From Candidatus Krumholzibacteriia bacterium (GTDB taxonomy: Bacteria; Krumholzibacteriota; Krumholzibacteriia; Krumholzibacteriales; Krumholzibacteriaceae): a stretch of DNA of 64,000 nucleotides. Positions 26,202 through 33,214 of the stretch are shown piece by piece. The stretch is from contig CAWIIQ010000001.1 in the NCBI GenBank assembly GCA_963836185.1, positions 896,001 through 960,000 of the forward strand, given 5' to 3'. The position numbers and the translations under genes are program-made. The notes beneath the pieces were generated by a model, which made no database searches, was not told where the DNA came from, and was given only the letters and a program-made list of their open reading frames with translations. Position 1 is the first letter of the stretch; each line of letters begins with the position of its first letter.

Positions 26202-26219
26202 CTGTCAGCAAGTCCCTCA

Positions 26220-26236
26220 AGCGGCGGACCGCCGCT
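26220..26236 (-). promoter_or_regulatory. Candidate SECIS hairpin for the FmdB-like gene
   Basis: AGCGGCG-GTC-CGCCGCT, starting at +16 after the UGA. Confidence 0.6.
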
Positions 26237-26425
26237 CTATCTGAAGGGGTTTCAGCCGAAACCACCCGACGGGGCGCATCCCGAAGCGGAGCTGGCGAAG
26301 ATAGAGAATTCCCTCTCTACGTCGTCGCTTTCGCAGTCGGGGCAGGAGACTCTCTCCGTGGAGTTCATCACGAGCTCCTCGAAGCGCTTCCCGCACGTCT
26401 CGCATCTGTATTCGTACAGCGGCAT
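26237..26425 (-). CDS. FmdB-family zinc-ribbon protein, candidate selenoprotein (57 aa to UGA at 26254-26252; 62 aa with Sec)
   Basis: MPLYEYRCETCGKRFEELVMNSTERVSCPDCESDDVEREFSIFASSASGCAPSGGFG-UGA-NPFR-TAG; GAAGGAG RBS; absent from the ORF track. Confidence 0.85.
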
Positions 26426-26593
26426 CTATTCTCCTTCGGTTTTCTTTTCTTCCTTCTTTTCTTTATCTTCATACCGGTCCCCGGTATCGCACGTTCCGCT
26501 CATTCAGGTGGGAACGCCCATGCGGGGCAGCACTATCCTCATTATCACGATCCATATCGCAAGAAACAATAAAAGCTGCAGGATCTCACCCAT
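26426..26593 (-). CDS. Small single-TM membrane protein, candidate selenoprotein (UxxxxC)
   Basis: MGEILQLLLFLAIWIVIMRIVLPRMGVPT-UGA-MSGTCDTGDRYEDKEKKEEKKTEGE-TAG; the read-through ORF exactly fills the gap between DUF302 and the next ATG. Confidence 0.75.
26471..26487 (-). promoter_or_regulatory. Candidate SECIS hairpin for the small membrane protein gene
   Basis: ATACCGG-GGA-CCGGTAT, starting at +17 after the in-frame UGA (26506-26504). Confidence 0.6.
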
Positions 26594-26596
26594 TCA

Positions 26597-26983
26597 CTAC
26601 ACTCCCTCTATTACATCGGCCAGCTTGTCGCGGACAATCGCTCCGACCCCCGCGAGGGCCTCGTTTCCTACCACGCTCATCGCGGACATCGGATCTATAG
26701 CGGATACCTCGACGCTTCCATCGTCGGTCTCGCGGACGATGACGTTGCATGGAAGCATAAGGCCCACTCTGTCCTCGGCCTTGAGCGTCTCGTACGCGAG
26801 CGGAGGATTACAGGCTCCGAGTATCCTGTACTGCGTAAACTCGACATCGAGCTTTTTCTTGAGCACCGCTTTGACATCTATGTCGGTCAGTACGCCGAAT
26901 CCCTGCTTCCCGAGCTCCTCGATAGTCTTCGAGACCGCTTCGTCAAAACCCAGTCCGACTCTCTTCGATATATGATAACTCAT
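26597..26983 (-). CDS. DUF302 domain protein
   Basis: GFGVLTDIDV, YRILGACNPPLA, GLMLPCNVIV. Confidence 0.92.
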   Translation of the reverse strand: MSYHISKRVGLGFDEAVSKTIEELGKQGFGVLTDIDVKAVLKKKLDVEFTQYRILGACNPPLAYETLKAEDRVGLMLPCNVIVRETDDGSVEVSAIDPMSAMSVVGNEALAGVGAIVRDKLADVIEGV

Positions 26984-27396
26984 TCCGTGTCGCCTCCGGC
27001 CAGCGGCTGATCGGCAGGGGATATACCGGGATCCCCCGCCGGTCGCCGTGGATAAAAACTGCGCAGCGCGTCCAGTCGATCTGTTGCTGTGTCTTCGATC
27101 GATCTGCAGACCATTCGGCAGATATCCTCAGGAAGGGTGCTGGTAAGGCTGTAGAAGATCTTCCTGTGGTCCCGCCGGGTACTGACCAGCTCGTGCCGTC
27201 GCAGTATACTCAGATGTTTCGAAACGCAGGCCTGGCCGTATCCTGTCTCATCGACGATGCAGGAGACGTTTTTTTCTCCGCCGCACAGGCAATGGATTAT
27301 GGCGAGCCTCGCCGGGTCCGACATAGCCCTGAGCCTGCCTGCAATCGCGTCGAAAGTGCCGTTATCGTTTTTCGCGGCCAAGTCTGCTCCTTTCAT
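26980..27396 (-). CDS. ArsR/SmtB-family transcriptional repressor, Cys-rich
   Basis: AMSDPARLAI, VSKHLSILR, IFYSL; Cys residues in HCLC and DICRMVC. Confidence 0.9.
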   Translation of the reverse strand: MKGADLAAKNDNGTFDAIAGRLRAMSDPARLAIIHCLCGGEKNVSCIVDETGYGQACVSKHLSILRRHELVSTRRDHRKIFYSLTSTLPEDICRMVCRSIEDTATDRLDALRSFYPRRPAGDPGISPADQPLAGGDTE

Positions 27397-27436
27397 ATTC
27401 TCATATATTAATATAACAATATGAAAGGTATGTCAA
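27389..27436 (-). promoter_or_regulatory. sigma70 promoter overlapped by a putative ArsR operator
   Basis: Minus-strand TTGACA (27436-27431) with an AT-rich -10; perfect 11-bp inverted repeat CCTTTCATATT (27389-27399) / AATATGAAAGG (27418-27428) around the palindrome TATATTAATATA. Confidence 0.65.
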
Positions 27437-32591: not shown

Positions 32592-32703
32592 ATGGATTCA
32601 ATTAAAGCAGGGTTGCTTTCACTCTTACATCTGCGCTTGACTTGAAACGTGAAGGTGATGGTGTTCGCTGGTAGGCTTTCAACCTTTTCAAAGGGGTGGG
32701 CAG

Positions 32704-33147
32704 ATGGCCGCGAAGGCAAAGACCAAGAAGAAAGCCAAGGCTAAGACCAAGAGAAAGGTCAAAGTCAAGGCTAAGAAGAAGCCGAAGGCCAAGACCAAGA
32801 AGAAGGTCAAGGCCAAGGCCAAGAAGAAGCCGAAGGCTAAAGCCAAAAAGAAGGCTAAAGCCAAGAAGAAGGTAAAGGCCAAAGCCAAGAAGAAGCCGAA
32901 GGCTAAAGCCAAGAAGAAGGTCAAGGCCAAAGCTAAGAAGAAGCCGAAGGCTAAGGCCAAGAAGAAGGTCAAGGCAAAGAAGAAGCCGAAGGCTAAAGCC
33001 AAGAAGAAGGTCAAAGCCAAAGCTAAGAAGAAGCCGAAGGCTAAGGCCAAGAAGAAGGCTAAAGCTAAGCCCAAGACCAAGGCTAAAGCTAAGCCCAAGA
33101 CCAAGGCCAAAGCCAAGAAGAAGACCAAAGCTAAGAAGAAAAAATAG
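32704..33147 (+). CDS. Histone H1-like Lys/Ala-rich nucleoid protein
   Basis: Almost entirely K/A/P/V/T; repeated KAKAKKK(V/P) units; own promoter and terminator. Confidence 0.85.
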   Translation: MAAKAKTKKKAKAKTKRKVKVKAKKKPKAKTKKKVKAKAKKKPKAKAKKKAKAKKKVKAKAKKKPKAKAKKKVKAKAKKKPKAKAKKKVKAKKKPKAKAKKKVKAKAKKKPKAKAKKKAKAKPKTKAKAKPKTKAKAKKKTKAKKKK

Positions 33148-33180
33148 CGGGTCTTCGCAAATCTGAGTAATATCGGATAA

Positions 33181-33214
33181 GAGCGGGAAGCCACAGCGGC
33201 TTCCCGCTTTCTTT
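33181..33214 (+). terminator. Intrinsic terminator
   Basis: GAGCGGGAAGCC-acagc-GGCTTCCCGCTT followed by a T-rich tail. Confidence 0.75.

Follow-up and report, generated by a model that had tools for sequence, protein, structure and literature searches.

A 55-residue membrane peptide predicted to be a selenoprotein, encoded beside a probable zinc-ribbon selenoprotein in a Krumholzibacteriia genome

A small gene in the genome of a Candidatus Krumholzibacteriia bacterium very likely encodes a selenoprotein, in which an in-frame UGA is predicted from sequence comparison to be read through as selenocysteine (Sec). The gene lies on the minus strand at positions 26426..26593 of the window, the 64,000-nt stretch of DNA that was analyzed, and consists of 55 codons with a single in-frame TGA at codon 30 (26504..26506). 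An initial annotation had placed a candidate selenoprotein at this position. The feature is real, but the annotation gave no strand and the plus strand yields nonsense. The candidate is now strongly supported by conservation of the UGA, by homologs with cysteine at the same site, and by a covarying bacterial SECIS (bSECIS) hairpin. The peptide is a new member of a family that has been predicted in the literature but never characterized. The adjoining zinc-ribbon gene probably encodes a second selenoprotein.

The initial annotation was accurate about the outline of the gene. Its ATG lies 3 nt past the TAG of a DUF302 gene, and GAGGGAG (26602..26608, minus strand), a putative ribosome-binding site, lies 8 nt upstream of the ATG within the last DUF302 codons. 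The hydrophobic helix, the sequence LPRMGVPT-TGA that follows it, and the read-through to TAGATG were all reproduced on the minus strand. The closing TAG of the micro-protein directly abuts the ATG of the following FmdB gene, an arrangement common to most of the genus. Hydropathy gave a single hydrophobic helix, assigned to residues 4-22 (26528..26584, minus strand; mean Kyte-Doolittle 2.7). In the AlphaFold model of a Cys homolog, a helix covers residues 2-26 with a pLDDT of about 90 and is followed by a low-confidence tail. Among 119 homologs, the N-terminal side of the helix carries a mean of 0.4 K/R and 0.9 D/E, and the C-terminal flank carries 1.4 K/R and no D/E. The predicted orientation is N-out/C-in, which would make the Sec cytoplasmic. 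A 204-nt short-read contig, which may come from the same sample, matches 26345-26548, including the TGA and the hairpin, without differences. RNA-library contigs overlap the region only as short or divergent pieces.

The codon at the predicted Sec site was compared among homologs. When 61 related genomes were searched, all 42 matches under E 1e-5 carried one TGA. Across 169 distinct loci, the codon was TGA in 124, TGC in 34, and TGT in 11; these counts include kin and hence are not independent, and treating them as independent overstates significance. TAA and TAG occurred at 0/169 loci, and homologs with Cys at the site are plentiful (45/169); both results go against conditions under which the initial annotation would have abandoned its selenoprotein call. 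A profile that spans the site favors read-through forms, so 14 weak or truncated matches were also fetched. Twelve were homologs, and 12/12 had the TGA. Two weak matches, L145 and L146, were dropped as non-homologs. A search of database representatives gave 270 matches; among the best 150 of the 270, the residue at the site is Cys in 97, the protein stops exactly before the site in 36, and 17 have other residues there (13 Trp, 2 Ser, 1 Gly, and 1 Leu), which are probably gene-caller readings of the TGA or substitutions. The 36 shortened entries bear out the expectation of the initial annotation that gene callers would truncate this gene. One family member with Trp at the site, P0004, carries the source annotation "p-aminobenzoyl-glutamate transporter AbgT" and looks misannotated. 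A tree built on 30 columns requires 13 Sec/Cys changes, and its resolution is too poor to exclude a single origin.

The sequence past the TGA is constrained first as protein and then as RNA. In 30 loci, codons +1 to +5 behave as coding, and the Cys at +5 (Cys35, the second residue of the U-x4-C pair; 26489..26491, minus strand) is invariant in 30/30 close relatives with its third base free. The third positions of codons +7 to +9 are frozen in these loci, as required of an RNA element. Across the family, the helix is followed by the motif C/U-[ML]-S-G-x-C, and the Cys at +5 is found in 95/96 Cys-type proteins. The UxxxxC arrangement emphasized by the initial annotation is thus common but not universal, since a TGA subfamily of 12 loci (L133-L144) lacks the Cys at +5, as do four other loci. 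Because the +5 Cys is missing from these, a U/C ring is not essential. In the L133-L144 subfamily, the motif reads U-[AG]-[VMA]-x-x-P and several members have a Cys further down the tail; one genome (G067) has two copies of this type, 2.7 kb apart. Three loci from another Krumholzibacteriota family (L244, L246, and L247) have a P-G-U variant with one extra residue before the TGA and retain a GG[GA] loop.

The putative bSECIS element is the hairpin ATACCGG-GGA-CCGGTAT (26471..26487, minus strand). As the initial annotation described, it is a perfect 7-bp hairpin with a G-containing loop: the stem starts at +17 past the TGA, and the GGA loop, 23 nt after the UGA, starts at +24. The hairpin folds at -10.5 kcal/mol with a z-score of -1.8 to -3.0, depending on the stretch that is folded. 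The bSECIS consensus, as given in PMC13188914, has a 3-9 nt loop, a 4-16 bp stem, an MFE of at most -7.5 kcal/mol, a G among the first two loop positions, and a spacing of 16-37 nt. With its 3-nt GGA loop, 7 bp, 23 nt, and -10.5 kcal/mol, the hairpin lies within all of these limits. In an alignment of 26 distinct relatives, 95.6% of cells were paired and 38 two-sided changes were counted; 0/500 shuffles scored as high, and slid controls reached at most 34%. Members from other phyla have unrelated stem sequences at the same place.

The hairpin follows the TGA and is mostly missing from the Cys forms. A stem of at least 6 bp was found in 75/124 TGA forms and 3/45 Cys forms when the loop window was narrow. 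Widening the loop window raised these values to 108/124 and 9/45. As a control, true TGA stops in this genome were scanned. Such a stem was present at 71/1326 of them (about 5%) in the narrow window, and at 70/668 in a control window slightly wider than the wider window of the test. Because about 5% of true stops have a stem of this size there, a single hairpin is only moderately unusual, and the significance of this one comes from its conservation across relatives. When the whole genome was scanned for TGA-hairpin sites of this kind, no other convincing gene emerged, and an Rfam search returned two tRNAs and nothing else.

The genes for Sec incorporation, which the initial annotation had named as a check, were found with one complication. 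The genome has selA (above cut-off), the tRNA-Sec gene selC, and selD, which has its own TGA and a SECIS-like hairpin with GGA at +21. selB is present along its whole length but is repeatedly frameshifted in this assembly. The murA gene flanking selB is likewise frameshifted, as is tuf at C1:71 kb; at C1:46400-49800 and 71100-72000, selB, murA, and tuf have several single-base frameshifts compared to congeners, which suggests that these are poorly polished stretches of the assembly. selB is intact in 6/6 congeners and above cut-off in 18/20 relatives. Given the similar damage to murA and tuf and the intact selB of the congeners, the selB frameshifts are likely an assembly error.

The main objection to Sec insertion would be that the TGA is a true stop, in which case the product would be a 29-aa membrane peptide and the hairpin would have another role. 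The frameshifted selB of this assembly and the presence of the 29-aa form in databases favor this explanation. The absence of TAA and TAG among 169 loci, the Cys codon at 45 of them, the conserved Cys at +5, a hairpin that tracks the TGA, and the state of selB, murA, and tuf described above all argue against it, and we regard a true stop as extremely unlikely.

selA is found in 200/208 genomes across the phylum. Among 21 genomes tested, 17/17 TGA-coded genomes had selA or selB (selA in 14, selB in the remaining 3); among the four Cys-coded genomes, three had neither selA nor selB and one had both. A fifth Cys-coded genome also has selA. Since 2/5 Cys-coded genomes have selA, the Cys form is more than a mere fallback.

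The initial annotation recognized no named family, and on this point it needs correction, as the family is already in print as a predicted selenoprotein. The published deep-Sep family consists of proteins of about 50-60 aa with one hydrophobic helix that has a conserved W, followed by LP[RK]xG[VI]xT-U, a Cys five residues on, and a charged tail. By eye, against six entries, the peptide shares all of these features. Three of the proteins collected here (P0095, P0113, and P0151) closely resemble two published entries and match the peptide profile with E values of 1e-5 to 9e-5. The accessible part of the published prediction gives no function, topology, range, or gene context for the family. What is new here is the range, the predicted cytoplasmic position of the Sec, two thioredoxin fusions, the sulfur/redox neighbors, and the probable second selenoprotein. 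The family is missing by name and motif from Table S1 of the predicting paper. It is also absent by name and motif from Table 1 (119 families) of a 2026 review, and from the searched passages of a 2022 review and of SelCysML. Either gene may be listed in BSepDB Table S2, in Haft and Tolstoy 2025, or in a groundwater study of deep-Sep.

Pfam and NCBIfam have no family that matches the peptide, its alignment, or several Cys homologs, and weak matches to ATP synthase b and EmbB were rejected as generic TM similarity. Matches from a PDB sequence search were no more than chance TM similarity (E at least 0.16), a word-indexed sequence search found only one truncated relative, and the ESM Atlas yielded a single unnamed cluster (0.87), which is only a lead.

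The family is widespread in some phyla. By profile search, it was found in 150/208 genomes of Krumholzibacteriota, 64/121 of KSB1, 78/251 sampled genomes of Acidobacteriota, and 17/201 genomes of Planctomycetota. In the Chloroflexota sample, 1/201 genomes matched; this was the seed genome only, so the family is patchy in Chloroflexota. Additional members were found in Armatimonadota and Chloroflexota records. Because the family is common in Krumholzibacteriota, KSB1, and Acidobacteriota, selenoproteome counts for these three phyla are likely too low; many database entries are also cut short.

The peptide gene is the third of four genes in the order arsR, DUF302, peptide, FmdB zinc ribbon. The first gene of this likely operon encodes an ArsR/SmtB-family repressor (26980..27396, minus strand; NF033788 above cut-off), and the DUF302 gene (26597..26983, minus strand) matches PF03625 with E 1e-25. 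An inverted repeat with 18-nt arms (89%) lies over the arsR start at 27389..27428, with TTGACA just upstream, and is likely an autoregulatory operator. A promoter scan called no minus-strand promoter at the arsR start. The ArsR protein scored 49.8 bits against the BigR model (cut-off 155); its Cys is one residue off the alpha-2 Cys of BigR, and alpha-5 lies outside the aligned part. In close relatives, FmdB adjoins the peptide gene in 31/31 and ArsR lies upstream in 25/31. FmdB is also adjacent in 19/20 further loci (16 from KSB1 and 4 from another Krumholzibacteriota family), and the one exception is Cys-coded. FmdB is absent from 63/63 metagenomic loci; since it is missing from Sec and Cys forms alike, its presence or absence may reflect lineage. 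The spacing between peptide and FmdB varies, and at some loci FmdB lies upstream.

Neighbors within 1.5 kb of the peptide gene were labelled by Pfam searches on representatives, and the labels were extended by local profiles. Outside Krumholzibacteriota, 72/127 loci have at least one sulfur/redox neighbor within this distance, the set being YgaP-TM, DUF302, FmdB, Trx, rhodanese/MBL, TauE, CoA-disulfide reductase, OsmC, AhpF-N, DUF1858, and cysteine desulfurase. The commonest neighbor outside the phylum is YgaP-TM (46/127 loci). None of the set was found at 55/127 outside loci, many of which are on short contigs. Genes for USP, zf-HC2 anti-sigma factors, and cytochrome bd-like proteins also recur near the outside loci and point to general stress. 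In KSB1, DUF6132, CoA-disulfide-reductase-like, thioredoxin-like, SelD-like, and multiheme cytochrome genes are added to the neighbors. Two Cys-type proteins, P0157 and P0148, are fused to thioredoxin; each occurs on one contig, and P0148 looks frameshifted.

Several of these neighborhoods form recognizable cassettes. In metagenomic loci L147-L179 and L200-L214, a zf-HC2 anti-sigma gene, the peptide gene (mostly in the Cys form), YgaP-TM, and a gene like cytochrome bd subunit I occur together, and the last of these bears a c-type heme domain. Six Acidobacteriota loci (L091, L097, L099, L103, L104, and L107) have a cassette of cysteine desulfurase, YgaP-TM, peptide, thioredoxin, and FmdB. At seven KSB1 loci (L228, L230, L233-L235, L237, and L238), genes for DUF6132-type small membrane proteins adjoin the peptide gene, and several of these proteins have C-x-[ST]-G-x-C past the TM helix, with the spacing of the peptide motif. 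In one KSB1 genome, the peptide gene is closely preceded by a SelD-like gene (L239:2031-2900, minus strand).

The FmdB-family gene next to the peptide gene (26237..26425, minus strand; TIGR02605, 61 bits against a cut-off of 31.3) would encode 62 aa if the TGA at its annotated end (26252..26254, minus strand) is read through. The predicted Sec would be five residues from the C-terminus, at the tip of a Gly/Ser tail, and all four knuckle cysteines here are Cys (CxxC). FmdB genes adjoining the peptide gene end in TGA in 45/45 and 19/19 cases from several phyla; in this genome, TGA accounts for 668/1232 long-ORF stops. A second in-frame stop follows 1-6 codons on in 64/64 of these FmdB genes versus 131/668 ordinary TGA stops. 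A second hairpin with SECIS geometry, an 8-bp stem with a GTC loop at +23, lies at 26219..26237 (minus strand), almost wholly beyond the read-through stop. A hairpin of at least 6 bp follows the FmdB TGA in 38/45 loci; in 15 of the 45, picked for similar spacing, 95% of cells were paired with modest covariation. A GC hairpin past the last gene of an operon could instead be a terminator, and no terminator-like site was called in this region. No Cys-tailed FmdB form was found among 18 matches. On the pattern of TGA, second stop, and hairpin, we consider it likely that the zinc ribbon carries Sec near its C-terminus.

An FmdB selenoprotein has previously been predicted from the GOS metagenome (PMC2398784; Table S1 of PMC12013277). 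It has the same TIGR02605 domain and its Sec is likewise a prediction, but it has UxxU in the first zinc knuckle, whereas the gene described here has a C-terminal TGA and a hairpin beyond the final stop. If its Sec is confirmed, the zinc ribbon would be a different form from the published one. A zinc ribbon with C-terminal Sec and a SECIS past the stop does not appear in the selenoprotein lists searched; BSepDB Table S2 and other catalogs may have it. This C-terminal Sec with a SECIS past the stop codon is the more novel half of the pair.

The initial annotation proposed that the peptide is a redox protein or a carrier of sulfur or selenium, and a redox or sulfur-carrier role fits the neighboring genes. 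We tentatively propose that the peptide is a Sec/Cys redox arm, tethered to the membrane, that handles sulfane sulfur and is recycled by thioredoxin-type reductants, a reading whose chances fall somewhat short of even. In this mechanism, SelB would bind the GGA-loop hairpin and Sec would be inserted, a step about which there is little doubt. N-out/C-in insertion, which is likely, would put Sec30 and Cys35 at the cytoplasmic surface of the membrane. The selenol would then attack a persulfide, polysulfide, or disulfide, Cys35, where present, would resolve the product to a selenenylsulfide, and an enzyme of the thioredoxin or CoA-disulfide-reductase type would re-reduce it; this chemistry is as tentative as the overall proposal. 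In this lineage, the peptide would be co-expressed with DUF302 and the zinc ribbon, likely under ArsR autorepression, and the zinc ribbon, with its probably Sec-bearing tail, would be the soluble partner of the peptide.

Several known systems resemble parts of this proposal. Eukaryotic SelK and SelS resemble the peptide in being small selenoproteins with one TM segment and a disordered tail in the cytoplasm; they differ in that their Sec is near the C-terminus rather than at the membrane boundary and their SECIS is in the 3' UTR. A thioredoxin-fold selenoprotein of the UxxC/CxxU type was ruled out by the single helix with a disordered tail and by the four-residue spacing. According to PMC9669993, the class Ia ribonucleotide reductase of E. 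coli has a C-terminal CXXXXC on a disordered tail that acts as a redox shuttle. Its Cys pair, four residues apart as in the U-x4-C arm, is only an analogy; there is no homology to the peptide, and the reductase is a large soluble enzyme without Sec or a membrane anchor. The YgaP-like TM domain (PF11127/DUF2892) has a C-terminal helix-LG-x3-C end that aligns in register with the peptide motif, but it has a pair of TM helices and an invariant Cys in a WCP motif, whereas the peptide has one helix, no WCP, and no Pfam match. This relation is a lead only (17 columns, probability 59-78%). E. coli YgaP is described in PMC4730233 as a membrane rhodanese, and rhodaneses cluster with sulfide-oxidation genes (PMC9163753).

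The same neighborhoods can be read in other ways. The Sec/Cys pair might chelate a soft metal or metalloid such as Hg, Cu, or As in an ArsR/SmtB response with the zinc ribbon. The ArsR/SmtB regulator upstream in most close relatives, the zinc-ribbon and zf-HC2 neighbors, RND membrane-fusion genes at a few loci, and the Cys-rich tails of many Cys forms are consistent with metal binding. The recurrent neighbor clusters include no metal ATPase, MerT, or ArsC cluster, however, and the thioredoxin fusion and the rhodanese, TauE, and CoA-disulfide reductase neighbors better fit sulfur redox, which makes metal binding unlikely in our judgment. It is similarly unlikely that the peptide acts as a general factor against oxidative or disulfide stress, or as a small accessory subunit of a membrane redox complex with YgaP-TM or a cytochrome bd-like protein, with no specificity for sulfane sulfur. 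USP, thioredoxin, OsmC, AhpF-N, and cytochrome bd-like neighbors would fit such a role, and so would the similarity to the YgaP-TM end, which 0/60 shuffles reached. Yet the cytochrome bd-like neighbors are confined to one metagenomic lineage set (15/127 loci), and the YgaP match is short, was obtained only in pairwise comparison, and has a shape that unrelated TM helices also give by chance.

A further explanation assigns the peptide itself a minor part: the gene would be a regulatory leader in which Sec-dependent read-through ties translation of the following gene to the availability of selenium. The abutting TAG and ATG in most of the genus and an unconserved tail past the SECIS are what such coupling would predict. 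We find it quite improbable, given that Cys forms retain the peptide and its motif without the hairpin, that the position of FmdB relative to the peptide is so variable, and that the TM and motif residues are clearly constrained as protein sequence.

The redox-arm reading can be extended to both genes. The U-x4-C peptide, itself derived from the tail of YgaP-type membrane proteins, and the C-terminal-Sec zinc ribbon with its 3' UTR SECIS might form a widespread but unannotated two-selenoprotein module, a selenium relay for sulfane sulfur at the inner face of the membrane in several anaerobe phyla. This extension is doubtful; if true, it would assign a function to DUF302, DUF2892, and FmdB-type zinc ribbons. 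The two products, of 55 and 62 residues, are easy to synthesize or express, so their redox chemistry and the function of several DUF neighbors are directly testable.

Elsewhere in the window, at 32688-33194, there is a highly repetitive, Lys/Ala-rich, histone-like ORF (32704-33147, plus strand) with a long open hydrophobic frame opposite.
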